The notes: a model not told the origin generated them from the letters alone. A DNA stretch of 64,000 bases from Candidatus Magasanikiibacteriota bacterium (GCA_023246715.1 JAHFHZ010000001.1:48571-112570); one strand, 5' to 3'. Numbered from the stretch's first letter, positions 35,867 through 61,968 are shown. Numbers and translations: made by a program.

Positions 35867-35870
35867 TCAT

Positions 35871-37682: not shown

Positions 37683-37689
37683 TTGCAGT

Positions 37690-37923: not shown

Positions 37924-37925
37924 GT

Positions 37926-38327: not shown

Positions 38328-38339
38328 TTTTTTGAATAT

Positions 38340-39074
38340 ATGTCTGAACAAAAAACAGTGGTGGTAATCGGAGGTAGCGGCGGGATTGGTCGGGCGATCG
38401 TAGACGTTTTGATGAAAGACGAGTTTATCGTTCACGCGACTTTTTTTAGCCAAGACGAGCTTCTACATAAAGCGAGCGGGGCAGATAGATTGTTCTGGCA
38501 TAAATTAGACGCGACGGAGGCGGTGGCAGTTGCGGACTTGTGGAAGGTTATTTTGAAAACTTCGCCGACTATTAATGGGGTTGTTTTTGTCGCAACGCTG
38601 CCTACCGCATATCATCCCTTAATGAAACTGGATTGGAAAGATTTTACCGCGCATTTTAATGTTCAGGTCGGAACCTTTTTTCATACTCTGGCGGCTTTGC
38701 GCGAAAATTTGTCGGCAATCGGACCATGTCAGTTTATTCCGATTTTGACTGAGTACTGCCAAGGTCGACCCCCGGCTGGTTTAAGCGATTATGTTGCCGC
38801 TAAGATGGCTCTACAGGGTTTTGCTCGCACTATGGTGGCAGAGTTGGCCAAGTACGGTTGCCGGGTAAATATGATTTCGCCGGGGATTACGCTTACTGAA
38901 TTAACCAGTTCGCTGCCACCTAAATTTTTAGAAATTGCCGCTGAACAGAATCCGCTCAAGCGACTAGCGCAGAGCACAGACGTGGCGGCCGTGGTGAAAT
39001 TTTTATTATCTGAACAAGCGGCATACTTGAATGGCGTCAATATTCCGGTGAATGGTGGGTCGACAGTACAATAA
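38340..39074 (+). CDS. SDR oxidoreductase (FabG-like ketoreductase)
   Basis: GGSGGIG, YVAAK, VNMISPG, NPLKR and YLNGVNIPVNGG. Confidence 0.88.
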   Translation: MSEQKTVVVIGGSGGIGRAIVDVLMKDEFIVHATFFSQDELLHKASGADRLFWHKLDATEAVAVADLWKVILKTSPTINGVVFVATLPTAYHPLMKLDWKDFTAHFNVQVGTFFHTLAALRENLSAIGPCQFIPILTEYCQGRPPAGLSDYVAAKMALQGFARTMVAELAKYGCRVNMISPGITLTELTSSLPPKFLEIAAEQNPLKRLAQSTDVAAVVKFLLSEQAAYLNGVNIPVNGGSTVQ

Positions 39075-39100
39075 CTCATTTTGTCACGGGCTTATTTGTT

Positions 39101-40579: not shown

Positions 40580-40581
40580 CT

Positions 40582-41784
40582 ATGCCCAGCTGGAAAACAA
40601 TCCGTAGCGCGGTTGGCCAACTATGGCTGGTTTTTTTGGCCGGACTTTTATGTTTAGGGGTGGTAGAGGGGGCGCTCCGGCTTAAGAGTCGATGGGGGGA
40701 ACAGCGTGGTTACCGGGTAACCCAGCCAAATGGTTTGGTCACGCTTGAGCCAGCTTTGGATACCCTTATTCGCGGCAGTACCGGCGAGTTGATTCATTTT
40801 AAAACTAATCACGAAGGGTTCGCGAGCGAAAATCACGCGGTGGTGGCTGCCACGGGCACTAAACGAATTGCTTTTTTAGGTAATTCTTTTACTCAGGGAA
40901 CAGATGTTGATTACGAGAAAAAAATGACGACGCTTATTCAGCGTTTATATCCCAAAACCAGTGACGGCCAAAAAGTTGAAATAATGAATTTTGCCATTGG
41001 CGGCTATAGCATCGTTGAACAAATGGTGCTTTACAATGAATATGTACGCAAATATCGCCCAGCGGCCGTGATTCTAGTATCTTATGTGGGCTATGATTTT
41101 TCAACTAACCTTCGTTTTTTACCTGAACAAAAAATCATCCTGGAAGGCGATATTCAGGCCCTCACGGCTGCAACGGTGAAACAAGCCACGGATGCTTTTA
41201 CCAAACAACAGCAAACACTCAAGAATCGACTGGTCGCGACATTCGAGGTGGTGCGGTTTTTGATCCGACTGACTCAGGAAAACCAAACGCTTAACACGGC
41301 CGCGGTTAACCTCGGGTTGCTTAAGCAACCATTTAGCGAGCAGGCTGCGAACTATTTGACTGACATTTGGGCTTATTTTAATCCTAATTCCGCGCCACAC
41401 CGCGAAGTAATGGAATTTACGGCCGCGACGATTAAGCGTTTGCAAAGCCAGATAACCAGAGACGGGGCTTCTTTTGGTCTGGTGCTTATTCCAAGTTATT
41501 GGCAGGTTAACGAAAAATATATTGCACAGCTTAAGGCAAAGCACATCCCTTTGCAGCTCGACTTGCCGAACACTACCCTTAAAAAACAACTCAATAACGC
41601 ATTGCCAATTTTAGATTTATCCACGCCGATTTATCGAGCATTGAACACGGAGCGTACCCCCATTTTTATTAAAGATATAGGCCATTTCACCGAGCAGGGC
41701 AATAGCTTGGCAGCGGAACAAATCGTTGAATTTTTGAAAGCCAATGAGTTTCAATTGCGGCTGAAACGCCCGGGCAAAAATTGA
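40582..41784 (+). CDS. SGNH/AlgJ-like extracytoplasmic acyltransferase with an N-terminal membrane anchor
   Basis: TM helix plus EGALR, RIAFLGNSFT (GDS-like), NFAIGGY and DIGHFT (DxxH); follows the MBOAT gene. Confidence 0.78.
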   Translation: MPSWKTIRSAVGQLWLVFLAGLLCLGVVEGALRLKSRWGEQRGYRVTQPNGLVTLEPALDTLIRGSTGELIHFKTNHEGFASENHAVVAATGTKRIAFLGNSFTQGTDVDYEKKMTTLIQRLYPKTSDGQKVEIMNFAIGGYSIVEQMVLYNEYVRKYRPAAVILVSYVGYDFSTNLRFLPEQKIILEGDIQALTAATVKQATDAFTKQQQTLKNRLVATFEVVRFLIRLTQENQTLNTAAVNLGLLKQPFSEQAANYLTDIWAYFNPNSAPHREVMEFTAATIKRLQSQITRDGASFGLVLIPSYWQVNEKYIAQLKAKHIPLQLDLPNTTLKKQLNNALPILDLSTPIYRALNTERTPIFIKDIGHFTEQGNSLAAEQIVEFLKANEFQLRLKRPGKN

Positions 41785-41809
41785 CTTTCTGCCTTGTGAC
41801 AGGTATATA
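41781..41809 (+). promoter_or_regulatory. Putative sigma70 promoter
   Basis: TTGACT (41781-41786), 17-nt spacer, TATATA (41804-41809). Confidence 0.4.
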
Positions 41810-41833
41810 TCAGTACACAGCTAAACTATTTTT

Positions 41834-43360
41834 ATGAAAGCCTGCATTTTTCTGCAAGGACAATATAGCAAACTCGGCCATGCTCTAGCGCGGGTTTTAA
41901 AAGAACAGCATGGCGTGACGGAATTTTGCGCCTATGTCTATTCATTGGGGGCTGCGGAATTCGTTCGCCAGGGCCAGTCGGACATTGCTTATAATCCGAT
42001 TTTAGTTGACCATGAGCTCCACGAACGTTTTCGGGCTGAGCAGATTGATTTACAATTCCTTGAACGTTTCGAGCATGAGTATGGCACGCCGCATTTATGG
42101 AAGTATTTATATGCGGATCGAAAATTGCTTATGTCAATTGGGCCTAAGGAAGAAACAACCGCCGTAATTGATCCGTTGTATGAACACGATGATTTACTGC
42201 GTATTTTTCAGAGTCGCGCGCGAGCGATTGAAGAAATGTTGCTTAAAGAACGACCAGATTTTGTTTTTTTCTTTGCTATTGGTGCAATTGGCAACATGCT
42301 GGTATATCATGTGGCTAAAAAATTAGGTATTCGTATTTTTACGATTGATTTTCCGCGGATCGGGAATTGGATTTCACTTTCTTCGGATTACAATACGCTC
42401 ACGGGGATTGAAGAGGGATTCAAATCTATCCGCGCTGGCCGTGATAACGAGCCAGTCCGGCAGAACGTGCGAAAATTCCTGACGGAGTTTCGCGCCACCG
42501 GTAATTTGAATTTAGAATATATTAAAATTGCCCAGCAGCTTAACCCGATGAAAGCGCCGTCATTTTTACATCCTAAACGGTTGCTCCGCACCTTTAAATA
42601 CTTGATCACCCTCACCAGAAATTGGTTAAAGAATCGCCAGCTGTTTGTGTATGGTGAAACCCATCTGAACCCTTTGCGTTTTGTTTGGTATAACAGCATT
42701 CGTAAATTCCGCCGTGCCCGAGGATTGGATGACTTGTATACGCAGCCGGTAGCTGGCGAAGAATATGCTTTTTTCCCGTTGCATTATGAGCCGGAGCTAT
42801 CAATTTTAGTGCTTTCGCCATTTTATTTTGATCAGCTTAACCTGATTCGGATAATTGCCCGGTCGTTGCCGGTACACATGAAGCTGTATGTGAAGGAACA
42901 CCCCTCGATGATTTTCCGTCGTTCGCGTAAGTATTACAAAGACTTGCTCAAAATTCCAAATGTTCGCCTGGTGCCGCACACTATTAAAAGTTTTGAGTTA
43001 ATTAAAAATTCTAAGTTGGTAACGGTAATTTCGAGTAGTGCTGGATGGGAGGCGTGTTTGCTTAAGAAGCCGCTCATTAGTTTTGGCGAAGTCTTCTATA
43101 ACGCTTTGCCCTTTGTGCGGCGTTCACGTACGCCGGATGATTTGCCAGAGTTAATTAAGGATCGTTTGGAGCATTTTGATTACGATGAGAAGACGTTGGA
43201 AGATTTTTTGGTCGCCACGTTTGAGGAGTCTTTTCCGTTTGATTACGCTGGATTATGGTATCAGAATGACATTGCAGCTTTGATGAAAGACGCGGGGGTA
43301 CAGGCCATTGCTCAGCGCGTCATGAAGCGCGTGAAAAGTTTAAACAGCCAGGCGGCTTAA
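41834..43360 (+). CDS. Capsule-biosynthesis (KpsS/LipB-like) protein, candidate CMP-nonulosonate transferase
   Basis: FFPLHYEPE, YVKEHP and VISSSAGWEA.LLKKP are typical of the Capsule_synth-type fold; adjacent to the NulO pathway. Confidence 0.72.
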   Translation: MKACIFLQGQYSKLGHALARVLKEQHGVTEFCAYVYSLGAAEFVRQGQSDIAYNPILVDHELHERFRAEQIDLQFLERFEHEYGTPHLWKYLYADRKLLMSIGPKEETTAVIDPLYEHDDLLRIFQSRARAIEEMLLKERPDFVFFFAIGAIGNMLVYHVAKKLGIRIFTIDFPRIGNWISLSSDYNTLTGIEEGFKSIRAGRDNEPVRQNVRKFLTEFRATGNLNLEYIKIAQQLNPMKAPSFLHPKRLLRTFKYLITLTRNWLKNRQLFVYGETHLNPLRFVWYNSIRKFRRARGLDDLYTQPVAGEEYAFFPLHYEPELSILVLSPFYFDQLNLIRIIARSLPVHMKLYVKEHPSMIFRRSRKYYKDLLKIPNVRLVPHTIKSFELIKNSKLVTVISSSAGWEACLLKKPLISFGEVFYNALPFVRRSRTPDDLPELIKDRLEHFDYDEKTLEDFLVATFEESFPFDYAGLWYQNDIAALMKDAGVQAIAQRVMKRVKSLNSQAA

Positions 43361-44382: not shown

Positions 44383-45369
44383 ATGGCTTTTGAATATCTG
44401 AAGGGAAAATCTATCCTGGTTACTGGTGGTACCGGCTCATTTGGGCAAGCTTTCGTGCGTACTTTGCTGACCCAGACCGAAGCGGCCCGTATCGTCATTT
44501 TTAGTCGCGATGAATTGAAGCAATCCCAGATGGAATCGGCTTTGAGCCAGTATGAGCCAAGACTGCGCTTTTTTATCGGTGACGTGCGCGATTTAGAGCG
44601 GCTCGAGCGTGCTTTTCGTGGTGTTGATTATGTGGTCCACGCCGCGGCTCTCAAGCAGGTGCCTATTTTGGAATACAATCCGTTTGAAGCGGTGAAGACT
44701 AATATTCTTGGCACCCAGAACGTGATCAACGCCGCGATTAATCAAAATGTTAAAAAAGTTGTTTTAGTTTCTACCGACAAAGCGGCGAACCCTGCTAATT
44801 TGTATGGGGCAACTAAATTATGCGCCGAGCGCCTGATGATGAGCGCGAATAGCTTTGCCCCCACTGGCCCCCGATTTGGCATTGTGCGTTATGGAAACGT
44901 GATTGGTAGCCGTGGCAGCATCGTGCAGGTCATTCGTCATCAAAGCCAAAAAGGTGTTGTCACGCTAACGCACGAGGAAATGACCCGTTTTTGGATCACG
45001 CTGGAGCAGGGAATTGAATTGGTTCTGCGAGCCCTGGAAGAAATGCATGGTGGTGAGATTTTTGTTCCCAAAGTCCCGAGCATGAAAGTAAAGGATTTTA
45101 TCCGTGTTTTGGCACCGGACGCGGAAATTAAACTGGTGGGCATTCGGCCGGGCGAAAAATTGCACGAAGTGCTGGTTACCCCCGAAGAAGCCCGTCACAC
45201 CAAAGAAATGGAGACACATTACGTTATTTTACCCGAACACGCCCACTGGCCGCATCATGAACATTATCAAGGAAAGCAAAATGTCGGAGATGATTTCTTT
45301 TTTTCCAGCCACACTAATCCGCAATGGCTTGAAAAAGAATCGCTTGAAGCTATGTTAAAAAATTTGTAA
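44383..45369 (+). CDS. pseB: UDP-N-acetylglucosamine 4,6-dehydratase (inverting)
   Basis: TGGTGSFG, FSRDELKQ, HAAALKQVP..EYNPFE, STDKAANP.NLYGATK, RYGNVIGSRGS, MTRFWITL and GIRPGEKLHE. Confidence 0.95.
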   Translation: MAFEYLKGKSILVTGGTGSFGQAFVRTLLTQTEAARIVIFSRDELKQSQMESALSQYEPRLRFFIGDVRDLERLERAFRGVDYVVHAAALKQVPILEYNPFEAVKTNILGTQNVINAAINQNVKKVVLVSTDKAANPANLYGATKLCAERLMMSANSFAPTGPRFGIVRYGNVIGSRGSIVQVIRHQSQKGVVTLTHEEMTRFWITLEQGIELVLRALEEMHGGEIFVPKVPSMKVKDFIRVLAPDAEIKLVGIRPGEKLHEVLVTPEEARHTKEMETHYVILPEHAHWPHHEHYQGKQNVGDDFFFSSHTNPQWLEKESLEAMLKNL

Positions 45370-46376: not shown

Positions 46377-47075
46377 ATGGTTAAGCAAAATATCGTCGTC
46401 GCGACCATCCGCCCCTGGAACATTGAACGGTTCGCCCGTTGGGTTCCGCCGGAAGGCTATGAAGCCCAGTTGATTTCGGATAAGGGTTCTTTGACACTAT
46501 CGGCACTCACTCAATTGGCGCCACGGTATGTTTTTTTTCCACACTGGTCATGGATTATTCCAACAGAAATTTTGAATAATTTTGAATGCGTGCTGTTTCA
46601 CATGACCAATCTGCCGTTTGGCCGTGGAGGTAGCCCAATGCAGAATCTGATTGAACAAGGGATTTATCAAACCAAAATTTCAGCCATCCGGGTTGCTGAT
46701 GGGTTGGATGAAGGGCCGGTGTACTTGAAGCGCTCTTTGGATTTATCAACCGGTTCGGCTCAGCAACTGTTTGAAAAAATGGCTGATGAAATTTTTGTCA
46801 TGATGACCGAAATTACCACTACTCAACCGCAACCGGTTGAGCAAAGCGGCGAGCCCACTTTTTTTAAACGGCGTACCCCGGAACAAAGCCAAATTACCCC
46901 CGGTCTATCGGGTCGAAAATTGTACGATTTTATCCGTATGCTGGATGCCGAAGGTTACCCGCGAGCTTTCGCACATGTTGGCGACGTTCGTGTTGAATTT
47001 AGTGGCGCCGAGTTGTTGGATAATGAACAGGTGGCAGCCCGAGCGATTTTTAAATCCATTGATCCTATTGTTTAA
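46377..47075 (+). CDS. Sugar N-formyltransferase (Fmt-like)
   Basis: FFPHWSWII, FHMTNLPFGRGGSPMQNLI, LDEGPVY and IRMLDAEGYPRAF. Confidence 0.88.
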   Translation: MVKQNIVVATIRPWNIERFARWVPPEGYEAQLISDKGSLTLSALTQLAPRYVFFPHWSWIIPTEILNNFECVLFHMTNLPFGRGGSPMQNLIEQGIYQTKISAIRVADGLDEGPVYLKRSLDLSTGSAQQLFEKMADEIFVMMTEITTTQPQPVEQSGEPTFFKRRTPEQSQITPGLSGRKLYDFIRMLDAEGYPRAFAHVGDVRVEFSGAELLDNEQVAARAIFKSIDPIV

Positions 47076-47079
47076 TGTT

Positions 47080-47790
47080 ATGACTATTCATCAGCCAAAA
47101 AATATTCTGGTTGTGGCCGCTCACCCCGACGATGAAATTTTGGGTTGCGGGGCGATGATCGCCAAACATATCGCGCAAGGTGACCAAGTAACGGTGCTGA
47201 TTTTAGGCGAGGGAATTTTGGCGCGCAAGGAAATGATCGGGGCAAACTTAGCCGAGGGGCAATGCCAGCTCAATAAGCTTTGGGATGATGCCCGCGAAGT
47301 GCATCGTTTTTTGGGGGTTAAGGAACTCGTACTGCATAATTTTCCAGATCTTAAATTCAGCACGGTACCACACTTAGACATGGTGCACGTGATTGAAGCG
47401 GTGCGGGACCGTTGCCGCCCGTCAATTATTTACACGCACCACCATGGCGACGCTAATATGGATCATCAGACCGTTTCCAACACCATGCAGGCTGTTTGCC
47501 GCGCTTTGCCAGACTCTACTATCGAGGCGGTTTATGCCTTTGAAATTGCTTCCTCGACCGAATGGAATTTTCGTCACGATCGGCAATTCCGCCCGAATGT
47601 TTATTTCGACATTTCGGGGGGCTTTTTAGAAAAAAAATTACAAGCGTTGGAATTGTACCGTTCGGAAATCCGCGATTTCCCACACCCGCGCTCCCGCGGG
47701 TACTTGGAGGCGCTTGCCACAGTACGCGGCGGCCAGGCTGGCTTTATGGAGGCAGAAGCTTTTGAACTTGTTTACCAGAAGCAGAAGTAA
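47080..47790 (+). CDS. PIG-L/LmbE family N-deacetylase
   Basis: VVAAHPDDEILGCG, YTHHHGDANMDH, SSTEW, PHPRS and AEAF. Likely start at ATG 47080, not the 46837 given in the track. Confidence 0.9.
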   Translation: MTIHQPKNILVVAAHPDDEILGCGAMIAKHIAQGDQVTVLILGEGILARKEMIGANLAEGQCQLNKLWDDAREVHRFLGVKELVLHNFPDLKFSTVPHLDMVHVIEAVRDRCRPSIIYTHHHGDANMDHQTVSNTMQAVCRALPDSTIEAVYAFEIASSTEWNFRHDRQFRPNVYFDISGGFLEKKLQALELYRSEIRDFPHPRSRGYLEALATVRGGQAGFMEAEAFELVYQKQK

Positions 47791-51864: not shown

Positions 51865-53028
51865 ATGAATACCAGAATTGTCAGTGATTCCAAGGATCTA
51901 ATTCGCTGTTCGCGCTGCGTGATGCCCGAAACCCAGGAGCCGATTATGTTCGACGCCGAGGGGGTTTGTAATACCTGCCGGAATTTAGAAATAAAACAGC
52001 AAAAAATTGACTGGGACGCCCGACTGAAACAGTTTGAGGAAATCATTAATCAATACCGGGGCAAGTACCAGTACGATTGCATTGTCCCATTTAGCGGCGG
52101 CAAGGATTCCACCTATACCGTGTGGGCGCTGGTTAAAAAGTTCGGTTTGAAGCCGTTGGTGGTGCGGTACAACCACCATATGATTCGGCCGCAAACTTTG
52201 CGCAATCAGGAAATGACGATTAAACAGCTTAAGTTGGATTTTTTGGAATATCGCACTGATTGGGATTTGGTAAAAAAATTAATGCGCGTCAGCCTGGACC
52301 GCAAGGGTGATATTTACTGGTACCAACACACTGGCATTTTTTGTTTCCCGATGCACATGGCGATTAAGTTCAACGTACCATTGATTATTTGGGGCGAGCC
52401 CACGGCCGAGTACGCCGCGTATTACCGCTATGATGAAGAAGAAATCGGCGACGAGGAGCGCTTCAATTATTTTATCAATCTCGGAATTACCGCCCAAGAC
52501 ATGATCGGTTTTTTGAATGATCCGACCGTAAAATTAGCTGATCTTTGGGCCCATCAGTTCCCGGCCCGCAAAGATTTACAGGCGATTGAATGTCGCTCAA
52601 TTTGTTTGGGAACCTACACTCCGTGGGATGTAAAGGCGCAGGCCAAGATTATTCAAGACGAACTTGGTTGGAAAGGTGATATGGTAGAAGGGGTGCCACC
52701 GGAGTATAACTACGAAAAAATTGAAGACATGCTACAGGGCGTACAAGATTATCTTAAATATATCAAACGTGGCTATGGTCGCATGAGCCACCTGGCTTCG
52801 ATTGATATTAGGAATGGTCGATTGACCCGCGAAAAGGCAATGCAAATGGTGGAGCAATGGGAAGGCCGCCGCCCCGGGAGCCTTGATGCGTTATTAAAAT
52901 GGCTCAATTTGTCCGAAGTGGAATTTTATGAAATTGCCAATCGGCATCGAGTGAGCCCCTGGAAACACGATTCTTCCCAGACCAAACGCGGCGAATCGCT
53001 CCCAGATCAAAAGGATTGGGTGATTTAA
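51865..53028 (+). CDS. N-acetyl sugar amidotransferase (PseA/WbuX/WbpG family), copy 1
   Basis: CSRCVMP...CNTC, YDCIVPFSGGKDS (PP-loop), IIWGE, YLKYIKRGYGR and IRNGRLTRE. Confidence 0.92.
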   Translation: MNTRIVSDSKDLIRCSRCVMPETQEPIMFDAEGVCNTCRNLEIKQQKIDWDARLKQFEEIINQYRGKYQYDCIVPFSGGKDSTYTVWALVKKFGLKPLVVRYNHHMIRPQTLRNQEMTIKQLKLDFLEYRTDWDLVKKLMRVSLDRKGDIYWYQHTGIFCFPMHMAIKFNVPLIIWGEPTAEYAAYYRYDEEEIGDEERFNYFINLGITAQDMIGFLNDPTVKLADLWAHQFPARKDLQAIECRSICLGTYTPWDVKAQAKIIQDELGWKGDMVEGVPPEYNYEKIEDMLQGVQDYLKYIKRGYGRMSHLASIDIRNGRLTREKAMQMVEQWEGRRPGSLDALLKWLNLSEVEFYEIANRHRVSPWKHDSSQTKRGESLPDQKDWVI

Positions 53029-53035
53029 AACTCGT

Positions 53036-53659
53036 ATGATCGTAGTGGTTGACTACGGCATGGGAAATTTGGGTTCGATTGCGAAAGCCCTGGAGTATGT
53101 CGGGGGTGAAGTACTCGTAACCAACGACCCTGCCCGTGTGGCACAAGCCGATAAATTAGTGCTCCCCGGAATGGGCGCTTTTCAGGATGGCATGAAACAT
53201 CTGGAGGAGCGTGGTTTGGTGCCCCTGTTGACCGATTTGGTGTTGAACCAAAAAAAACCATTTTTGGGGATTTGTTTAGGCATGCAGCTTTTGGCTAAAC
53301 GCGGTTTTGAATGGGGCGAATACCCCGGTTTGGGTTGGATTGACGCCGAGGTGGTTCGATTTGAAGTTGATAAAATCAAGGGATTAAGCGTGCCCCACGT
53401 GGGATGGAATGATTTAACTTTGACGCGGAGCACGCCGTTATTTGCTGGCTTGGAGAATGGGGCGGATGTTTATTTCGTGCATAGCTATCATTTGGCGTGC
53501 CGTGAACCGAAGTTGGTGACTGCTACATTTGAATACGGCGATACTTTTACCGCCGCTTTAATGCAGGAGAATATTTTTGCCACGCAATTTCACCCAGAAA
53601 AAAGTCAACGTGATGGACTGACGATGCTCAAGAATTTTTTATCTTGGCAACCCCAGTGA
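53036..53659 (+). CDS. hisH: HisH-like glutamine amidotransferase subunit (WbuY-type), copy 1
   Basis: DYGMGNL, LPGMGAF, GICLGMQ, PHVGWN, YFVHSY and QFHPEKS. Confidence 0.92.
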   Translation: MIVVVDYGMGNLGSIAKALEYVGGEVLVTNDPARVAQADKLVLPGMGAFQDGMKHLEERGLVPLLTDLVLNQKKPFLGICLGMQLLAKRGFEWGEYPGLGWIDAEVVRFEVDKIKGLSVPHVGWNDLTLTRSTPLFAGLENGADVYFVHSYHLACREPKLVTATFEYGDTFTAALMQENIFATQFHPEKSQRDGLTMLKNFLSWQPQ

Positions 53660-53660
53660 T

Positions 53661-54416
53661 ATGTTGAAACAGCGCATTATCCCGATGCTACTACTCTATA
53701 AAGGGAGAATGGTTAAGACCGTTCAATTTGCCGAGTATCGTGATGTTGGCAACCCCGTCACCACCGCGCGTGTTTTCCAGGCGCAACGAGCCGACGAATT
53801 GCTCTTCCTGGATATTTCTGCTAGCATCGAAGATCGGGGGATACTTTTTGATATCGTTAAAGAGGTCTCCGGTGAATGTTTCATGCCTTTGGGCGTTGGC
53901 GGCGGCCTGCGTACTTTGGAGGATATTCGCGCGATTTTGGAAAAAGGCGCGGATAAGGTAATTATTAATACCGCGGCAGTGGAACATCCCGGCTTTATAG
54001 AAGACGCGGCGCGACGATTCGGCAGTTCCACGATTGTAGTTTCGATTGATACGAAAAAAAGGAACGACGGGACTTACGAAGTGTATACGCGCCGGGCGAC
54101 CAACGCTACCGGGCTTGATCCGGTTGCCTGGGCCGTTGAAGCCGCGCGGCGCGGCGCGGGGGAAATTATTATTACCCGGGCTGATTTGGACGGGACGATG
54201 CAGGGATTGGATATTGGACTCATTACGAAAGTTGTCCAATCCGTGAACGTGCCCGTGGTGGCTTCGGGTGGGGTGGGATCGCTCGATGATTTTCGCAACG
54301 CTTTTCAGGCTGGAGTATCAGGAGTAGGCGCGGGGAGCATTTTTCACTTTACCGATCAGAGCATTGTTAAAACCAGAAAATATTTATGTAATGCCGGGAT
54401 TAATGTACGGCCTTAA
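53661..54416 (+). CDS. hisF: HisF-like cyclase/ammonia-channel subunit (WbuZ-type), copy 1
   Basis: RIIPMLL, ADEL, VGGG, GADKV, GAGEI, DGT and ASGG; the canonical HisF PCLD motif is not present. Confidence 0.88.
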   Translation: MLKQRIIPMLLLYKGRMVKTVQFAEYRDVGNPVTTARVFQAQRADELLFLDISASIEDRGILFDIVKEVSGECFMPLGVGGGLRTLEDIRAILEKGADKVIINTAAVEHPGFIEDAARRFGSSTIVVSIDTKKRNDGTYEVYTRRATNATGLDPVAWAVEAARRGAGEIIITRADLDGTMQGLDIGLITKVVQSVNVPVVASGGVGSLDDFRNAFQAGVSGVGAGSIFHFTDQSIVKTRKYLCNAGINVRP

Positions 54417-54428
54417 TAATAGGGATGT

Positions 54429-55481
54429 ATGATTAAAGACATTCGCCTGGGTAATCGCGTGCTGGGGTTGGAACAACCGGTTTTTATTTCGGCCGAAGTA
54501 GGCACTACCTGCAACGGTGATTTTGAAACTGCTAAAAAATTAATCAAAGCCGCCAAAGATGCTGGCATGGACGCAGTAAAATTCCAAATTCTTGACCCGC
54601 TTGATAAATACAGCGACCATTCGCTCACTTATACCTATAAGCGGTTCAACGGCGAAGAAGTAACTGAAAATTTTATTGAGATGCTTAAAAAGTACGTGCA
54701 ACCCAAAGAAAATTGGCGGGCGCTAAAGGAATACGCCGATGAGTTGGGAATTATTATGTTTGCCACCCCCGACCATATGGCGGCGGTGGATCTGATGGAA
54801 GAATTGGGGATGCCCGCCTATAAAGTGGCCACTTGGGACGTAACCTGGTATCCATTTTTACGCAAAATTGCTTGTACCAAAAAACCAGTTGTTTTGGACT
54901 TTGGCGCTTCGGATAAAGAAGAAATTGCCCGGATTTTGAAAATTTTTGAAGAAGAAGGCAATGACCAATTGATTTTACTGCATTGCTACCATACCAATGA
55001 TTTTGCCCAAATGAACATCCGCACCGTGGAATATTTGCGTGAAGCGTTTGGCCACCTGAGCGGCTATTCGGCAGATGACGCGAATCATGATTTAGATTTT
55101 ATGTCACTCCCATATCGCCCGGTGTATATTGAAAAGCGTTTGACACTGAACCGTGAGGACCCTAACCATCATCATGGTAAGGCCGCGCAGCCAGAAGAAA
55201 TGGTGGCTTACGTACAGCGTATTCATGAATTGAGTAAAGCGCGTGGAGTGTTTGATGTGCGCCCGACTGAAGGAGATTTGCGCGATAAATTTAAGTATTT
55301 CCGCCGAATTGTGGTTTATCGCGACCTTAAAGCAGGTGAAACGTTGACGGAAGAAAACACGATGTGCAAGCGTCCATTGCAAGGCGGGGTCGACCCACAG
55401 TATTTGCCTTTATTTTTGGGGCGTACGGTTAAACGGGCGATGAAGGAAAACGAACCAGTCCAATGGGTTGACTTGGAATAA
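54429..55481 (+). CDS. Divergent NeuB/PseI-family nonulosonic acid synthase homolog with a SAF domain
   Basis: AEVG, AGMDAVKFQ, ATP, YKVA, LLHC, IEK and a C-terminal RR..DLKAGE..KRP..G SAF domain; several catalytic motifs are altered. Confidence 0.85.
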   Translation: MIKDIRLGNRVLGLEQPVFISAEVGTTCNGDFETAKKLIKAAKDAGMDAVKFQILDPLDKYSDHSLTYTYKRFNGEEVTENFIEMLKKYVQPKENWRALKEYADELGIIMFATPDHMAAVDLMEELGMPAYKVATWDVTWYPFLRKIACTKKPVVLDFGASDKEEIARILKIFEEEGNDQLILLHCYHTNDFAQMNIRTVEYLREAFGHLSGYSADDANHDLDFMSLPYRPVYIEKRLTLNREDPNHHHGKAAQPEEMVAYVQRIHELSKARGVFDVRPTEGDLRDKFKYFRRIVVYRDLKAGETLTEENTMCKRPLQGGVDPQYLPLFLGRTVKRAMKENEPVQWVDLE

Positions 55482-55490
55482 TTTTCATTT

Positions 55491-56732
55491 ATGAATTACT
55501 GCCAACGCTGCTGTTATCCGGCCAATGCAAAACCTACGATTGCTTTTGACGATCAAGGAGTTTGCAGCGGGTGCCGATTGCACGACGCGCGCAAGCAAAT
55601 TGATTGGAAAGAGCGCGAAACGTGGTTCCGGGAAATTATGGAAAAATATAAAGCCGAAGGCAAAAAGCGCGGCAATATTTATGACTGCGTGATCGCGGTC
55701 TCGGGTGGCAAAGACAGTTTCTATCAAGCGTGGTTGGCTAAACAATACGGCATGAATCCGCTTTTGGTGACGTTTAACCATACGTTTAATACCAAAGTAG
55801 GGATTTATAATTTGCAAACGATGGTCAAAAGCCTGAATCTGGACTTGTTGCGCTTTACCCCGAACGAAGAATCAGTGCGCAAAATTTCGCGCCATATGGT
55901 GAAGACGGTGGGTGACTGCGATTGGCATTCGCATGCTGGCATTATGACTTTCCCCATTCGCGTGGCCGTGCAATACAACACCCCGTTGATTATCTGGGGT
56001 GAACACGGGTTTGCGGACCAGACGGGTATGTTCAACCAAAATGACATGGTGGAATTCACCAAGAAAACTCGCCGCGAACACAGCATGCGCGGTTTTGAGC
56101 CTGAGGATTTGGTGGGGCATGAAGGGCTGGCTGAAAAAGATTTAGGACCGTACCATTATCCATCGGACGAAGAAATTGAGCGCGTTGGTTTGCGCGGTAT
56201 TTACATCAGTAATTACTTTTTCTGGAATGGCAAAGCCCAGGCGGAATTTTTGATTAAGAATTTTAATTTCCGTACGGCCGCGCAGAAGGACCGAACGTAT
56301 AATATTTACGACAAAATTGATGGGTTCCATCAATGCGGCACGCATGATTATTTGAAATACCTGAAGTTTGGATATGGTCGGGCGACTGATGACGCTAGTA
56401 TGGATATCCGCCATGGTCGGATGACCCGCGAAGAGGGGATTGAAATGGTACAAAAATACGATCATGTTCGGCCAACCGATTTGGATGTATACCTGAAGTG
56501 GGTGGGACTAAGCGAGGCAGAATTAATGGGCGTGGTGGATACCATGCGCGACCAGAAAATTTGGCAGAAAGACGCTGCTCACAAATGGCAGATAACTGAT
56601 TCAATTGGTAATCATATCAATGATCCTGGAGCGCAAACGGCGAAATTACCGCTTGATGGAGATCGCGGTGGTTATACCGCGAATCTACCCCCGTATTATT
56701 GGGAGCGTGATGATCAATATATTATTTTGTAG
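55491..56732 (+). CDS. N-acetyl sugar amidotransferase (PseA/WbuX family), copy 2
   Basis: CQRCCYP...CSGC, YDCVIAVSGGKDS, IIWGE, HDYLKYLKFGYGRATD and IRHGRMTREE. Confidence 0.92.
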   Translation: MNYCQRCCYPANAKPTIAFDDQGVCSGCRLHDARKQIDWKERETWFREIMEKYKAEGKKRGNIYDCVIAVSGGKDSFYQAWLAKQYGMNPLLVTFNHTFNTKVGIYNLQTMVKSLNLDLLRFTPNEESVRKISRHMVKTVGDCDWHSHAGIMTFPIRVAVQYNTPLIIWGEHGFADQTGMFNQNDMVEFTKKTRREHSMRGFEPEDLVGHEGLAEKDLGPYHYPSDEEIERVGLRGIYISNYFFWNGKAQAEFLIKNFNFRTAAQKDRTYNIYDKIDGFHQCGTHDYLKYLKFGYGRATDDASMDIRHGRMTREEGIEMVQKYDHVRPTDLDVYLKWVGLSEAELMGVVDTMRDQKIWQKDAAHKWQITDSIGNHINDPGAQTAKLPLDGDRGGYTANLPPYYWERDDQYIIL

Positions 56733-56753
56733 TGGGTTAGTAAGCTGTCGGTT

Positions 56754-57389
56754 ATGATCGGCATTGTAAATTATCAGGCCAATAATTTGCGCTCAGTTGC
56801 CAACGCTCTTAAGGCGATTGGCGCTGAATTTTTTATTGCCGATGAACCAGCTCGCTTGGCCAAGGCAACGGCTATTGTGCTGCCTGGCGTGGGCGCTTTT
56901 AGCGACAGTATGACCAATTTGAGGCGTCTGGGCTTTATCGAGCCCCTGCAACAGGCGGTGCGCGTTGAAAAAAAACCGGTGTTAGGCCTCTGTCTGGGGA
57001 TGCAGTTGATGGCAGAAAAAAGTTTTGAATTTGGCGAGCATGAAGGTTTGGGTTGGTTACAAGGAACAGTAGAAAAAATTGAGCCAAACGATCAGTCGTT
57101 CAGGGTGCCGCACATGGGTTGGAATAATTTGGAACATATTTCGCCCGCCAGCATGCTGTTGCAGAGTATCGTGCAGCCAGCGGTAGTTTATTTTGTGCAT
57201 AGTTATTATTTTAAACCGGTCGCTGGAGCGGAAGCGGTAGTAACTTCAACTGTTTCACACGGACTCACCCTTACAGCTACGGTGGAAAAAGATTATATTT
57301 TTGGTTGTCAGTTCCATCCCGAAAAAAGCCAGCAAGCCGGTTTGCTGATTTTGCAAAATTTTGTTGAATATACCAAACAACATGCTTAA
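56754..57389 (+). CDS. hisH: HisH-like glutamine amidotransferase subunit, copy 2
   Basis: NNLRSV, LPGVGAF, GLCLGMQ, PHMGWN, YFVHSY and QFHPEKS. Confidence 0.92.
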   Translation: MIGIVNYQANNLRSVANALKAIGAEFFIADEPARLAKATAIVLPGVGAFSDSMTNLRRLGFIEPLQQAVRVEKKPVLGLCLGMQLMAEKSFEFGEHEGLGWLQGTVEKIEPNDQSFRVPHMGWNNLEHISPASMLLQSIVQPAVVYFVHSYYFKPVAGAEAVVTSTVSHGLTLTATVEKDYIFGCQFHPEKSQQAGLLILQNFVEYTKQHA

Positions 57390-58188
57390 GAAGCGTTTGA
57401 TTAGCTGCCTGCTGTGGCGGGAAGGCACGCTGGTTCAATCCCGACAATTCCAGCATACTAATTCGGTTGGAGATGCCCTGACAGCGGTTGATTTTTTTAA
57501 TACCTGGGCGATTGACGAGATCGTGCTGCTGGACGTTAGTCGCACTCCGAAACATCGAGCGTTGTTTCACGAACATTTACGCGAATTGTCGGAACGTTGC
57601 TTTGTTCCCTTGGCGGTGGGTGGCTGGGTAACTACCCTTGCGGAAATTCGACAGTTACTTTCCGAAGGGGCGGACAAAGTGGTGGTTAATACGGCCGCAG
57701 TCCGAGATCCAAATTTTATTACGATGGCTTCTGAATCTTTTGGCGCTCAATGTATTGTTGTTTCAATTGATGCCAAGAAAAATACAACTGGCGAGTATGA
57801 GGTATTTGTTAATCGAGGGAAGGATGCTGCCGGAATGCGGCCTGATCAATTAGCAAAAGTTTCCGAAGAACGGGGAGCTGGGGAAGTTTTTATTACTTCG
57901 ATTGATCATGATGGCAGGCAAGCCGGCTATGATATGGAGCTAGTTCGTTTGGTGCGACAGGCGACCAGCGTGCCGGTGGTTGCTTCGGGCGGGGTGGGTG
58001 AATGGTCGCACCTAGCCGAGGCAATTATCGAAGGCGGGGCTGATGCGGTTTCGGCGGCAAATATTTTTCATTATTCGGATCAAAGTACCAAAAAAGCCAA
58101 AGATTATTTGAAGTTAGTAGGGATTGACGTTCGCGAACCGGAATTTTATAAGATTTTATTACCACGCAAGCCGGTTTATAGGGTATAA
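57382..58188 (+). CDS. hisF: HisF-like subunit, copy 2
   Basis: MLKKRLISCLL (start at 57382), DEI, VGG, GADKV, FGAQC, GAGE, SIDHDG..GYD and ASGG. Confidence 0.88.
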   Translation: MLKKRLISCLLWREGTLVQSRQFQHTNSVGDALTAVDFFNTWAIDEIVLLDVSRTPKHRALFHEHLRELSERCFVPLAVGGWVTTLAEIRQLLSEGADKVVVNTAAVRDPNFITMASESFGAQCIVVSIDAKKNTTGEYEVFVNRGKDAAGMRPDQLAKVSEERGAGEVFITSIDHDGRQAGYDMELVRLVRQATSVPVVASGGVGEWSHLAEAIIEGGADAVSAANIFHYSDQSTKKAKDYLKLVGIDVREPEFYKILLPRKPVYRV

Positions 58189-58197
58189 TCAGTTCTT

Positions 58198-60504
58198 ATG
58201 TTATTCGAACAGCTTAATCAGGGTTCGTGCCGGGCATATTTGATTGGCGACGAAAAGTCACGCCAAGCTATTTTGATTGATCCTCGACTGGAATTTGTGC
58301 CGAACTATCTTGTTTATTTGGAAAAAAATGGGCTAAAACTTACTCATGTCATTGATACACACACCCACGCCGACCATATTTCGGGGGCGACGCTCCTGGC
58401 TAAAGAAAATGGCGCCAGCTATTTAATGCATCGCGCTTCACCGGTGAGTACGCTCGCGGAGCGAATTGAAGATGGTTTTACCCTTGAGCTGGGCCAGATT
58501 AAAGTGTCGGCGCTCTATACCCCGGGGCACAGTAAAGATTCCGTGTCCATTTTGGTGCCGGGAAAAATTTTAACGGGTGATGCTTTATTTTTAGATGACG
58601 GCGGCGCGGGCCGCGATGACTTATACGGTGGTGATTCAGGCGAACATTGGGAAAGCTTGCAGCGTTTGGGCGCGCTCGATGAACGATTGTTGGTTTTGCC
58701 AGGCCACGAGTATCGCGGGTACGCGCCTTCGACCCTGGCCCAACAAAAACGAACTAATCCAATGTTGCGTTACGAAAATAAACAATCATATGTTGATTTT
58801 ACTCATAACACTTTGTATGGCGCGGCTGACTGGATGAAACCGATTGTGGCGGCCAACATCGCGGGTGTAACCGAAGCCTTGGCAGAGCCGCTGGGAGCAG
58901 ACACGGCTTGTGAAGTCATGGCTTGCGAACCAATGAGCCCGTGCGAGCCTGTTAAGGGAGCTGTCAGTTTTGCGGGCGCGGTATTGAGTGTGCCCCAGCT
59001 GCTCGAGAAATTAAACAGCACCGAGCCGCCAATAGTATTAGACGTGCGGGAAGAACACGAATTGTTAGGGGAGCTGGGTAGACTGGATAATATTATTCAC
59101 ATTCCCGTTGGTGAATTGACGGCGCGTTTGAGTGAACTTGTTGAATACAAACACCGCGAATTGATCGTGGTTTGCCGCACCAGCAACCGATCACTTAAAG
59201 CAGGGGGTATACTCTCTCGCGCTGGATTTATCAAGGTGGGGGTTTTAGCCGGTGGCATGCATGCGTATCGAGGGGTGGAAAATTCATCCTCGTGGATGGT
59301 TGATCAACCAATTTATTTGGATCACGCCGCAACGACATACCTTGATCCGCGGGTGAAAGCCGTAATGGAACCTTTTTGGGAAACTGATTTTGGTAATCCT
59401 TCAAGCACTTACAGTCTTGGTCGCCGCTCCAACGATTCTGTTGAAACCGCGCGGGCCAGAATTGCTGAATTGCTTAAGGTCGAAGCACAGGAAATTATTT
59501 TTACCGCTGGGGGAACAGAAAGCATTAATTTGGCTATTTTTGGAGTAGTCGAAAGACTTATTGCGCAGGATTCTAAACCTCATATTATTACCTCTGCCAT
59601 TGAACATAGCGCGGTACTTAAAAGTGTTGAAGCGCTGCAACGCCGGGGGTGCGCGGTGACGATTTTGTCGGTTGACCGGGAAGGATTTATTGATTTGCGG
59701 CAACTCGAGCAGGCAATTACCCCGGCGACGACTTTGGTATCAATTATGTATGCTAATAACGAGATTGGCACTGTTCAACCAATCGCGCAGATTGGAAAAT
59801 TATTACGTAAAATAAACGAAACACGTGAACCGAAAAAATTACCCCGTATTTTATTTCATAGTGATGCTTGTCAGGGAGCCGGCGCTTTGAGTATTGATGT
59901 GCAAAAACTTGGCGTTGATTTATTGACAATTAATGGAAGCAAGCTCTACGGGCCTAAGCAGACCGGCTTATTGTATTGCCGAACGGGAGTAGCTCTGACG
60001 CCGATTATATATGGTGGTGGCCAGGAGCATAGTTTAAGAAGTGGAACGGAAAACGTCCCGGGCATTGTTGGTTTGGCAAAAGCTCTGGAGCTTGCCCAAC
60101 AAGAAAGCGAGGCGGAAAACTATCGTTTGCGTGAACTGCGCCAGTTCGGGTTTGATTGGCTAAAGAAGGAAGTCCCCGAGATGTTGGTGAACGGCGCAGA
60201 GGAAGACTCTGCGTCTGAGCTCCGGCGGTTACCAAATAATATTAATGTTTCTTTTCTAGGGGTTAATGGTGAAAATTTGCTGGTGTATTTAGACCGGCAT
60301 GGTATCTGCGTTTCAACTGGCAGCGCTTGTTCGGCAAAGCATACTGGAGCGTCGCATGTGTTAACCGCTATTGCCTGCCCGCCTGATTATATTAATGGCA
60401 GTTTGCGTATCACGCTTGGTAAAAGGACCAACAAAAACCAATTACAAAAAGCACTTATGGTTGTCGCAGACGGCGTTCGGCGGCAACGAGAAAAGCGAGT
60501 TTAA
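58198..60504 (+). CDS. Triple fusion of an MBL-fold persulfide dioxygenase (ETHE1-like), a rhodanese and a class I cysteine desulfurase (IscS/NifS)
   Basis: MBL part: IDTHTHADH, TPGHS, TGDALF, GRDD, PGHEY. Rhodanese: LDVREEHE, CRTSNRS, LAGG. Desulfurase: YLDHAATT, FGNPSS, GGTE, EHSAV, ANNEIG, HSDACQ, SKLYGPK, GGGQE, RSGTENV, STGSACS. Single reading frame. Confidence 0.93.
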   Translation: MLFEQLNQGSCRAYLIGDEKSRQAILIDPRLEFVPNYLVYLEKNGLKLTHVIDTHTHADHISGATLLAKENGASYLMHRASPVSTLAERIEDGFTLELGQIKVSALYTPGHSKDSVSILVPGKILTGDALFLDDGGAGRDDLYGGDSGEHWESLQRLGALDERLLVLPGHEYRGYAPSTLAQQKRTNPMLRYENKQSYVDFTHNTLYGAADWMKPIVAANIAGVTEALAEPLGADTACEVMACEPMSPCEPVKGAVSFAGAVLSVPQLLEKLNSTEPPIVLDVREEHELLGELGRLDNIIHIPVGELTARLSELVEYKHRELIVVCRTSNRSLKAGGILSRAGFIKVGVLAGGMHAYRGVENSSSWMVDQPIYLDHAATTYLDPRVKAVMEPFWETDFGNPSSTYSLGRRSNDSVETARARIAELLKVEAQEIIFTAGGTESINLAIFGVVERLIAQDSKPHIITSAIEHSAVLKSVEALQRRGCAVTILSVDREGFIDLRQLEQAITPATTLVSIMYANNEIGTVQPIAQIGKLLRKINETREPKKLPRILFHSDACQGAGALSIDVQKLGVDLLTINGSKLYGPKQTGLLYCRTGVALTPIIYGGGQEHSLRSGTENVPGIVGLAKALELAQQESEAENYRLRELRQFGFDWLKKEVPEMLVNGAEEDSASELRRLPNNINVSFLGVNGENLLVYLDRHGICVSTGSACSAKHTGASHVLTAIACPPDYINGSLRITLGKRTNKNQLQKALMVVADGVRRQREKRV

Positions 60505-60516
60505 TTTTTTCTAAAT

Positions 60517-60550
60517 AAAAAAGAGCTGGTTATTTTCAGCTTCTTTTTTT
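60517..60550. terminator. Probable bidirectional intrinsic terminator
   Basis: A-run, GAGCTG, 8-nt loop, CAGCTT, then a T-run, between the convergent genes ending at 60504 and 60549. The stem is short. Confidence 0.55.
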
Positions 60551-60746
60551 ATTTTCCACGCGTATTAGCAGCCGAAGCCAGCGCGAGCAGCATGGACGCC
60601 ACGGCCAGAACCGGGTGCCATGGTCCCACGCCGTTGAGCCATTCAAGGATGTCGCCGCCGCTGATCAGCATCCAGCCGAACCAACCAGCTAGGACGAGTC
60701 CGCCAGCTAGTCGGAGGACCTGTAGTAGTGCTGTGCTTTTTTTCAT
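60549..60746 (-). CDS. Small membrane protein (65 aa, two TM helices), unknown function
   Basis: AAGGAG ribosome-binding site about 10 nt before the ATG, an upstream TTGACA and a downstream terminator. It has two hydrophobic segments and basic termini, and it fills an intergenic gap. Confidence 0.7.
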   Translation of the reverse strand: MKKSTALLQVLRLAGGLVLAGWFGWMLISGGDILEWLNGVGPWHPVLAVASMLLALASAANTRGK

Positions 60747-60882
60747 TGTCGAAGGTCTCCTTTTTTGAGGATTTCATATCATATTTTATCGCTCTTGTCA
60801 ATATTTTTGGCTTAGGTTAAACTAATTCTTGGCGTTATATTGATGGTAGGGTTATATTAATTTCATTAAGTGGATAATTAGC

Positions 60883-61968
60883 ATGAAGTCTTTCTGTATT
60901 CCTACTCCTCAGGGCGGTTTGCGCCACATTGGGCCAGGCCAGCCCTGTTTTATTATCGCCGAAATGTCCGGAAATCATCACCATGATTATGATAAAGCCG
61001 TAGAAATTATTAAAGCGGCCAAGGCGGCTGGCGCCGACGCGATTAAAATTCAGACCTACACCCCGGATACTATGACGATTGATTGCGATAAGCCGTGGTT
61101 TATGGTGAAAGGCAAAGATCAGCCCGAATTGTGGCAGGGGCAGAAGCTCTATGATTTATACCAGACTGCTTATACGCCGTGGGAATGGGACGCTAAACTG
61201 CAGAAAGTCGCGGAAGCCGAAGGATTGATTTTTTTCTCCACCCCGTTCGATCCGTCCGCGGTTGATTTTTTGGAACCGCTTAATCCACCTTGTTATAAAA
61301 TTTCTTCGTACGAAGCAACCGACTTTACCCTGCTCCGACGCGTGGCGCAGACCGGCAAGCCGGTTATACTGTCGGTTGGATTCGCGGAGCGTGACGAGGT
61401 TGATTTTGCAATTGAAACCCTCCGTAAATATGGCGCGAAGGATATTGGCATTCTGCACTGCGTCACCGCCTATTCGGACAAGCCCGAAATTGATGAAACG
61501 AATATGCTGACAATGCTTGATATCCGCGACCGCTACGACGTGGTGTGCGGTTTTTCGGATAATAACGCCGGAATTGAAATTCCGACTGTAGCCGCCATGG
61601 CGGGAGCTTCGATTGTTGAAAAGCATTTTATGATTGAGCGCCAGGAAGGCGGGCCGGACGCGCGGTTTTCGATTGAACCCAGTGAGTTTGAAAAAATGGT
61701 CCAAAGCATTCGACGCGCGGAGCGAATTATGGGAAAGGTTAATTACGGCTGCCAGAGTGATAAGGAACGGGAAAATACTTTTTTTCGCCGATCGTTGTTT
61801 GTGGTGGAGGATATTAAAAAAGGAGAAAAGTTTACCTCGCGTAACGTACGCTCAATCCGGCCTTCCAAGGGGATGGAGACTAAGTACTATGATGAGGTGA
61901 TTGGCCAAAGCGCGGCAGAGGATATTGAACGCGGCACGCCATTTGTTTGGGAGTTGATTCAAAAATAG
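60883..61968 (+). CDS. pseI: Pseudaminic acid synthase-like (NeuB family)
   Basis: FIIAEMSGNH, GADAIKIQTYTPDTMTID, LYDLY..AYTPWEW, FSTPFD, YKISSYE, VEKHF, GGPDARFS, FRRSL and IRP. Confidence 0.88.
   Translation: MKSFCIPTPQGGLRHIGPGQPCFIIAEMSGNHHHDYDKAVEIIKAAKAAGADAIKIQTYTPDTMTIDCDKPWFMVKGKDQPELWQGQKLYDLYQTAYTPWEWDAKLQKVAEAEGLIFFSTPFDPSAVDFLEPLNPPCYKISSYEATDFTLLRRVAQTGKPVILSVGFAERDEVDFAIETLRKYGAKDIGILHCVTAYSDKPEIDETNMLTMLDIRDRYDVVCGFSDNNAGIEIPTVAAMAGASIVEKHFMIERQEGGPDARFSIEPSEFEKMVQSIRRAERIMGKVNYGCQSDKERENTFFRRSLFVVEDIKKGEKFTSRNVRSIRPSKGMETKYYDEVIGQSAAEDIERGTPFVWELIQK

Follow-up and report, generated by a model that had tools for sequence, protein, structure and literature searches.

On a stretch of 64,000 nucleotides from Candidatus Magasanikiibacteriota bacterium (GCA_023246715.1 JAHFHZ010000001.1:48571-112570), which was analyzed as a whole and is referred to as the window, one open reading frame (ORF) at the end of a predicted pseudaminic acid operon unites a persulfide dioxygenase (PDO)-type metallo-β-lactamase (MBL) domain, a rhodanese, and a cysteine desulfurase in a single chain of 768 amino acids (P0001; Table 1). 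Judging from its domains and catalytic residues, we assign a probability of roughly 50% to the reading that this chain strips the sulfur from l-cysteine as an enzyme persulfide, which it would then likely oxidize with O2 to sulfite or thiosulfate. Should this prediction be correct, the complete route from cysteine to its oxidized product would be housed in one polypeptide and require neither free sulfide nor a small thiol as a carrier, and this in an unusual host for a predicted oxygen-dependent cysteine consumer, namely a bacterium with a genome of ~1 Mb in which no genes for the synthesis of cysteine or glutathione were found. New is the order PDO–rhodanese–desulfurase in a nonulosonic acid operon; the combination of the three families itself recurs in clusters of the ESM Atlas.

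The frame is uninterrupted and the motifs named in the initial annotation are intact, as borne out by translation, by Pfam, and by an alignment of the four proteins found with this architecture, i.e., P0001 and three homologs. Pfam recognizes Lactamase_B at residues 8–170 (E 2.6e-14), Rhodanese at residues 267–357 (E 6.6e-11), and Aminotran_5 at residues 372–750 (E 2.4e-68, 231 bits, profile positions 1–369 of 371). All four fusions and 87/87 rows of an alignment of PRF-type (PDO–rhodanese) proteins retain, without exception, the seven residues of the MBL metal site (H55-x-H57-x-D59-H60, H111, D128, and H170), and the same is true of the rhodanese loop cysteine C326, whereas the pyridoxal phosphate (PLP) lysine K582 (NGSKLYGPK) and the persulfide cysteine C711 (STGSACS) of the desulfurase were compared among the fusions, where both are invariant (4/4). 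With NCBIfam, the desulfurase part remains below the equivalog cut-offs of NifS (415.3 vs. 530.75 bits), DndA (343.8 vs. 480), and IscS (323.8 vs. 643.2).

In a search of the PDB, the N-terminal 365 amino acids best match BpPRF (5VE3, E 1e-39), and they do so end to end (residues 5–359 against 26–367) with C326 aligned to the catalytic cysteine of the BpPRF rhodanese; the stand-alone PDOs 4YSB (1.2e-37) and human ETHE1 (4.9e-26) come next, and glyoxalase II (1.4e-12) matches far less well. CstB, which the initial annotation had cited for known PDO–rhodanese fusions, carries two rhodanese modules after its PDO. Because of the single Pfam rhodanese and the end-to-end match to BpPRF, the N-terminal half is by its sequence of the PRF type and not of the CstB type. 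The cysteine-rich linker described previously does contain three cysteines (C238, C243, and C249), of which, however, only C243 (followed by E244) is conserved, namely in 4/4 fusions and 48/87 PRF rows. These 48 rows, among them proteins from Nitrospirota and Saccharibacteria and the four fusions, make up a PRF subfamily with conserved W212-M213 and C243-E244, both of which are absent from the BpPRF-like half of the alignment. C11 is present in 86/87 rows, and C11 and C243 may represent extra sulfur-handling cysteines of PRF-type proteins. The in-frame ATG at 59296 (M367), regarded before as the likely ancestral start of the desulfurase, is indeed present, yet the three homologs do not conserve it, and it gives no evidence of such a start.

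In the proposed reaction sequence, the PLP domain (K582) would turn l-cysteine into l-alanine and load a persulfide on C711, from where it would move to C326 of the rhodanese. The Fe(II) site (H55/H111/D128 type) would then oxidize the sulfane sulfur to sulfite. As in CstB of Staphylococcus aureus, thiosulfate might form if this sulfite meets another persulfide on the rhodanese. In a role like that of the CstB loop cysteine, C243 of the linker may be an internal persulfide carrier. The general idea of the initial annotation, i.e., a persulfide that is made from cysteine, handed on, and oxidized, would fit the parts of the protein, and the pairwise steps have experimental precedents elsewhere. 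A natural desulfurase–rhodanese fusion is reported to move cysteine sulfur efficiently via its rhodanese (PMC8931425); CstB is described as a PDO that is coupled to rhodanese, makes thiosulfate, and uses an internal loop cysteine (PMC12934615), and BpPRF as an example of rhodanese–PDO coupling with sulfur derived from thiosulfate via glutathione (PMC9163753). The fused dioxygenase argues for an oxidized end product over delivered sulfane sulfur.

A word-indexed search of 5.8 billion proteins retrieved three homologs (P0002, P0003, and P0004) of 760–784 amino acids that contain all three Pfam domains and are 52–53% identical to P0001 over their full length. Furthermore, in two other samples, Logan contigs extend across the MBL–rhodanese junction (58756–59063 and 58773–59022) and the rhodanese–desulfurase junction (59047–59335), each with 0 differences, which supports the fusion across the junction region that the initial annotation had singled out; these samples share the study with the probable source and are hence not fully independent, their depth is low, and parts of the ORF are without cover in three runs. 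Since homologs of the same architecture exist and contigs span both junctions, the fusion is not an assembly artefact.

With 4 proteins in the databases searched, the domain order is very rare. When 1.84 billion cluster representatives were searched exhaustively with HMMER, only the query itself was matched at full length among the best 150, the other matches being seven PRF-only proteins and, for the remainder, the desulfurase part only, in a few cases inside longer proteins. Likewise, when a PRF-scored search was limited to proteins of 422–1344 amino acids, only the same four of the 120 listed carried Aminotran_5. Genomes sampled from the phylum (400), the class (400), and the order (40) yielded no second full PRF or fusion, and no description of a three-domain PDO/rhodanese/cysteine desulfurase fusion was found in the literature searched outside subscription journals.

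That the architecture was unfamiliar to the initial annotation is thus understandable as far as the domain order is concerned, but the same three Pfam families (Aminotran_5, Rhodanese, and Lactamase_B) do occur together in five ESM Atlas clusters of at least 50 members. The three clusters shown have 122, 64, and 68 members of 748–799 amino acids, which stem mostly from Pseudomonadota where the origin is known and bear Lactamase_B in 79–82% of cases. No such protein appeared among the best 150 (HMMER) or best 120 (word-indexed and length-limited searches) matches to the fusion, in 400 Pseudomonadota genomes searched with a rhodanese plus desulfurase query and the Blh family, or by tblastn on 72,556 plasmids. 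As none is among the best matches of these searches, the Atlas proteins would be at most distant relatives of the fusion, and P0001, with the Atlas clusters compared by Pfam content, is probably a permuted, independent joining of the same three activities. Because the clusters of 122, 64, and 68 members share these Pfam families, the three activities recur together outside any glycan setting; apparently they were fused at least twice, which, if so, is a strong argument that they work as a unit.

Several candidates for further three-domain fusions were rejected: frames of 724–922 amino acids from the Pseudomonadota scan have no HxHxDH motif, a 752-residue frame in locus L042 has the MBL domain only, and a match on the megaplasmid of Microvirga sp. 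VF16 (L204:8959-12942) turned out to be a row of unfused genes for an MBL protein (246 amino acids), an MFS transporter, a NifS-type desulfurase, and a PNP/UDP-type phosphorylase, with no rhodanese. A different kind of desulfurase fusion was noticed at L203:3497-6925 (minus strand) and in P0191 (~1140 amino acids, some Pseudomonadota), where a molybdopterin oxidoreductase (Molybdopterin plus Molydop_binding) is followed by a C-terminal cysteine desulfurase.

Phylogenetic trees were computed separately for the two halves of the protein. The PRF-domain tree comprises 87 rows (76 of 80 loci, seven database proteins, and the four fusions; four loci were dropped for matches of <300 amino acids) and unites the four fusions with P0121, a protein of 369 amino acids, in a clade with an SH-aLRT support of 99, a Saccharibacteria PRF being found in the next larger starred clade. 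In the desulfurase-domain tree (FastTree, 150 rows), the fusions fall into an 11-row clade with seven stand-alone desulfurases (support 97), and several stand-alone desulfurases elsewhere among the listed matches are labelled Patescibacteria or Sungbacteria by their sources. Both trees give the same pairing, (P0001, P0002) and (P0003, P0004), and because the halves pair alike, the data would fit a single fusion event that was inherited as a unit.

The host genome (1.06 Mb in 44 contigs, 92.8% complete) derives from a groundwater metagenome and contains two further desulfurases, namely SufS beside SufU and SufC, and an IscS/NifS-type protein of 417 amino acids that is encoded ~0.8 kb from ThiI and shares 48% identity with the fusion desulfurase. 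The fusion is therefore not the only desulfurase of the genome, which would have told against the proposal of the initial annotation, but a third, accessory, island-borne one rather than the housekeeping enzyme. The statement that no mnmA, thiI, or isc/suf partner is present in the window proved correct and can be extended, as neither IscU/NifU nor ThiI or MnmA genes lie beside the fusion in the window or in the 30 kb downstream. GshA and GshB gave no family match in this 92.8%-complete genome, and because no glutathione synthesis genes were found, the substrate of the dioxygenase would be a protein-bound or cysteine persulfide rather than glutathione persulfide, unless glutathione is taken up. 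The presence of an Fe/Mn superoxide dismutase suggests that the host is exposed to oxygen.

The entire window is devoted to glycan biosynthesis, with many glycosyltransferases, a flippase, two AsnB-like amidotransferases, an FkbH/AcpS/MBOAT acylation set, and a nonulosonic acid block. From PseB to the fusion, 16 genes run on the same strand with gaps of at most 69 nt, in the order PseB, RmlD-like reductase, formyltransferase-like gene, PIG-L deacetylase, carbamoyltransferase, GNAT, GFO-type oxidoreductase, cytidylyltransferase, WbuX1-HisH1-WbuZ1, a divergent NeuB-like synthase, WbuX2-HisH2-WbuZ2, and the fusion. The second acetamidino triad (55491..58188) lies directly upstream of the fusion, with a gap of 9 nt between WbuZ2 and the fusion. 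The two PP-loop amidotransferases reported to precede the fusion are thus indeed adjacent, but they belong to two complete WbuX–HisH–WbuZ triads and are not lone enzymes. Downstream, a terminator-like hairpin begins 19 nt past the stop codon, and the gap of 378 nt to PseI contains promoter-like hexamers (60795–60858, pattern match). Because of the tight gene run, the hairpin, and the promoter-like sites before PseI, the fusion is predicted to be the last, co-transcribed gene of a pseudaminic acid operon.

Table 1. Coordinates of the triple fusion, its domains, and neighboring features in the window (positions counted from the first nucleotide).
Feature	Position	Strand	Basis
PseB, first gene of the 16-gene same-strand run	44383..45369	+	NCBIfam PseB 452 bits, above cut-off 407.75
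WbuX1, HisH1, WbuZ1 (first acetamidino triad)	51865..54416	+	NCBIfam 343.3, 237.3, and 286.4 bits
WbuX2	55491-56732	+	NCBIfam WbuX 357.6 bits
HisH2	56754-57389	+	NCBIfam HisH 216.7 bits
WbuZ2	57361-58188	+	NCBIfam WbuZ 271.5 bits
PDO–rhodanese–cysteine desulfurase triple fusion (P0001)	58198..60504	+	Uninterrupted 768-aa frame; three Pfam domains; three homologs of same architecture
PDO-type MBL domain, aa 1–225	58198..58872	+	Pfam Lactamase_B; PDB matches; ligands conserved
Linker, aa 226–266, with C238, C243, C249	58873..58995	+	Alignment of four fusions; C243-E244 codon 58924-58926
Rhodanese domain, aa 267–357; loop C326-RTSN-R331	58996..59268	+	Pfam Rhodanese; Cys codon 59173-59175
Type I (IscS/NifS-like) cysteine desulfurase domain, aa 372–750	59311..60447	+	Pfam Aminotran_5; K582 59941-59943; C711 60328-60330
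Terminator-like hairpin, then T-run	60523..60542	+	Consensus scan, pattern match only; 19 nt past fusion stop; minus-strand reading 60541-60524
PseI (pseudaminic acid synthase)	60883..61968	+	NCBIfam 429.9 bits, above cut-off 340.25

WbuX was detected in 3/41 genomes of the order (this one counted) and in 0/6 of the family. About 4–6 kb past the end of the window, an rve-type integrase and a DDE transposase fragment (L183:4418-6066, contig C11) were located, and these insertion sequence (IS) elements mark the far end of the glycan island, which is not conserved. Between PseI and the IS elements lie genes for a TIM-barrel protein, a cupin, a GSA-aminomutase-like aminotransferase, a CN-hydrolase, and a HIT protein.

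Several further features of the island deserve mention. Convergent to the fusion, an ORF of 65 codons on the minus strand (60549–60746, with GGAGA ~8 nt upstream) encodes a hydrophobic peptide; the hairpin at 60523–60542, which is common to both genes, is a possible two-way terminator. The second NeuB-family synthase (54429–55481, plus strand), located between the two acetamidino triads, scores 196 (NeuB) and 178 (PseI) bits, i.e., below both equivalog cut-offs, and, with a bona fide PseI at 60883, the island may make two different nonulosonic acids. As listed, the formyltransferase-like ORF (46377–47075) and the PIG-L deacetylase ORF (46837–47790, plus strand) overlap by 239 nt, the TTG start of the latter having probably been called too early. 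On the plus strand at 35489–43360, genes for AcpS, an FkbH-domain protein, a MaoC-like dehydratase, a short-chain dehydrogenase/reductase (SDR), MBOAT, and an AlgX/SGNH-like protein look like a glyceryl-carrier-protein-based acylation set for a surface polymer.

The neighborhoods of stand-alone relatives were surveyed at 80 listed PRF loci (of at least 80; 65 of these have flanks of 5 kb or more) and 80 listed loci of the closest desulfurases (of at least 80). A desulfurase was within reach in 0/80 of the former, which showed nonulosonic acid neighbors in 1/80, and PRF, WbuX, HisH/F, NeuB, or PseB neighbors occurred in 0/80 of the latter, so that the glycan surroundings for which the initial annotation had suggested looking are hardly shared by the stand-alone relatives listed. 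The one positive locus (L036:6148-16906) is from a metagenome-assembled genome of groundwater Elusimicrobia, in which a stand-alone PRF overlaps by 4 nt with a CBS-nucleotidyltransferase gene that opens a legionaminic-acid-type cluster of LegC (428 bits, above the cut-off), NeuC, a NeuD-type acetyltransferase, WbuX, HisH, and WbuZ. This PRF is on a tree branch separate from the fusions, and a PRF–glycan adjacency was seen in 0/6 other PRF-bearing genomes of the same class (found among 200). No study linking nonulosonic acids, sulfur, and a cysteine desulfurase was found in the literature outside subscription journals. The position of the fusion in the operon is real; its link to the glycan is unsupported by the evidence tested.

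Some observations weigh against the oxidation of cysteine sulfur as the function of the fusion. This function gives no account of why the gene closes a nonulosonic acid operon, 9 nt after WbuZ2, and the L036 locus, too, has its PRF at the head of a legionaminic acid cluster. Moreover, no cysteine synthase (CysK) was found in the 92.8%-complete genome; the host therefore probably scavenges its cysteine, so the oxidation of cysteine sulfur looks costly. Users or exporters of sulfite were not found in this genome either, in which TauE (sulfite exporter), sulfite reductase (NIR_SIR), Sulfotransfer_3, and ComA gave no match.

Alternatively, the fusion might be a general persulfide donor (for tRNA thiolation, Fe–S clusters, cofactors, or protein persulfidation), in which case the dioxygenase would act as a safety valve and gene transfer, not function, would account for the location of the gene in the glycan island. 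We consider this unlikely, although it ranks first among the alternatives: the desulfurase domain clusters with stand-alone desulfurases, several of which are source-labelled Patescibacteria or Sungbacteria, the island is not conserved (no full PRF in the 400 class and 400 phylum genomes, and WbuX in few genomes of the order and none of the family) and is flanked at its end by IS elements, and a natural desulfurase–rhodanese fusion is reported to persulfidate a model protein (PMC8931425). However, SufS–SufU–SufC and IscS–ThiI already cover such tasks, the PDO ligands are invariant in all four fusions so that oxidation seems to be selected for, and the flat GC content across the region (0.44–0.50) gives no compositional sign of recent transfer. 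Least probable of all, in our estimation, is that the MBL domain is a glyoxalase-II-like thioester or persulfide hydrolase and not a dioxygenase. Its NCBIfam score is slightly higher for GloB (93 bits) than for Blh (90 bits), both being below the cut-offs, and its PGHEYRG motif is one that we take to be intermediate between the glyoxalase II and PDO forms; yet solved PDOs match at 1e-39 to 5e-26 as compared to 1.4e-12 for glyoxalase II, and the colinearity with BpPRF extends through the rhodanese to the whole PRF architecture.

Other alternatives take the surroundings of the gene at face value. The fusion could supply sulfite or thiosulfate for a sulfur-containing (e.g., sulfonated) nonulosonic acid or another sugar of the island, possibly through addition of sulfite to the 4-keto-5,6-ene intermediate of a 4,6-dehydratase; in UDP-sulfoquinovose synthase (SQD1), sulfite adds to a 4-keto-5,6-ene intermediate. 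No sulfite-using sugar enzyme was recognized, though, and PseB, which exceeds its equivalog cut-off, looks ordinary. An SDR at 10945–12075 was considered as a sulfoquinovose synthase and rejected, as its matches are to dTDP/CDP-glucose dehydratases, with SQD1 missing from the PDB entries retrieved at E ≤1e-10. The end position in the 16-gene PseB run (9-nt gap, hairpin behind, promoter-like sites before PseI), the glycan character of the entire window, the status of the fusion as an extra desulfurase, the PRF gene overlapping the start of the LegC/NeuC/NeuD/WbuX/WbuZ cluster at L036, and the fact that the genome has no other recognized sulfite route are in favor of such a supply, which we nonetheless deem improbable, placing it after the donor function, given the rarity of such neighbors (1/80 PRF and 0/80 desulfurase loci listed, 0/6 in the class of L036) and the missing link between nonulosonic acids, sulfur, and cysteine desulfurases in the literature covered. 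Its most specific form, in which a cysteine-scavenging host would keep a dedicated sulfite generator whose product is trapped by a sugar-nucleotide intermediate, the nonulosonic acid thereby becoming sulfonated or taking up sulfur in another form, is more doubtful still; the PRF at L036 would then be a second instance of a sulfur–glycan link, and no such nonulosonic acid was found in the literature searched.

The relay put forward in the initial annotation, where the persulfide passes from desulfurase and rhodanese to a PP-loop amidotransferase and sulfur replaces ammonia to give a thioacetamido sugar, while the dioxygenase clears the excess, appears very unlikely. The fusion adjoins WbuX2-HisH2-WbuZ2, and there is chemical precedent in PP-loop (AANH) thiolating enzymes: PMC12494993 describes how desulfurase-derived persulfides attack ATP-adenylated carbonyls to yield thioamides in ThiI, MnmA, and TtuA, and the report on the N-acetyl-sugar amidotransferase (NASAT) LpNASAT cites TtuA and the sulfur insertase LarE (PMC10607449). 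But WbuX1 and WbuX2 are both canonical NASATs with the PP-loop SGGKDS and the tetracysteine motif CxxC...[GN]xCxxC, and because each is paired with its own HisH and HisF-like partner and no third, orphan WbuX exists in the genome, no PP-loop acceptor is left without an ammonia source. WbuX2 is furthermore an ordinary enzyme with 119 listed homologs of 56–72% identity from many phyla (best 120 of 7225), as opposed to only four known fusions, and, as a weak additional point, none of these best 120 is on a contig of the size of the fusion-bearing ones (62215, 29535, and 4333 bp). A covalently attached dioxygenase would also compete for the persulfide. The tetracysteine motif binds zinc and not an Fe–S cluster in the solved LpNASAT (PMC10607449), which by analogy also weakens the idea that the fusion supplies Fe–S clusters or sulfur to the CxxC motifs of the amidotransferases. 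Oxidation of cysteine sulfur on a single chain remains our preferred reading.

Among known systems, the two triads upstream of the fusion match the WbuX–WbuY–WbuZ/PseA-type systems (LpNASAT, PDB 8WEX) including the PP-loop and the tetracysteine motif. Such systems work without a sulfur donor, and the fusion is an addition that was not seen beside the other WbuX loci examined. The Atlas clusters resemble the fusion in combining Aminotran_5, Rhodanese, and Lactamase_B on one chain of 748–799 amino acids.

The closest structurally characterized relative of the N-terminal half is BpPRF from Burkholderia (Paraburkholderia) phytofirmans (PDB 5VE3/5VE4/5VE5), with which it shares the colinear arrangement of PDO and rhodanese, aligned metal ligands, and the aligned catalytic cysteine. 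BpPRF has no desulfurase, in contrast to the IscS-type sulfur source on the same chain of the fusion, and draws its sulfur from thiosulfate via glutathione (PMC9163753), whereas the genome of the fusion has no GshA/GshB match. The two also differ in W212-M213 and C243-E244, which are present in the PRF subfamily of the fusion and absent from the BpPRF-like half. With CstB, the fusion has in common the coupling of PDO and rhodanese and the predicted oxidized product, a loop cysteine taking the place of glutathione in CstB (PMC12934615). The corresponding PDB entries match far more weakly than BpPRF (3R2U, 7.6e-16; 3TP9, 4.3e-21), and CstB is devoid of a desulfurase, while the fusion has one Pfam rhodanese. 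The desulfurase end finds a functional counterpart in a fusion from Pseudorhodoferax sp. Leaf274 (Selles et al. 2022, PMC8931425) that, like P0001, carries a desulfurase and a rhodanese on one chain and for which l-cysteine was the preferred donor and transfer through the rhodanese cysteine was shown experimentally. As described there, that protein has just two domains, begins with the desulfurase, and lacks a dioxygenase, whereas P0001 has its rhodanese in front of the desulfurase and an added PDO.

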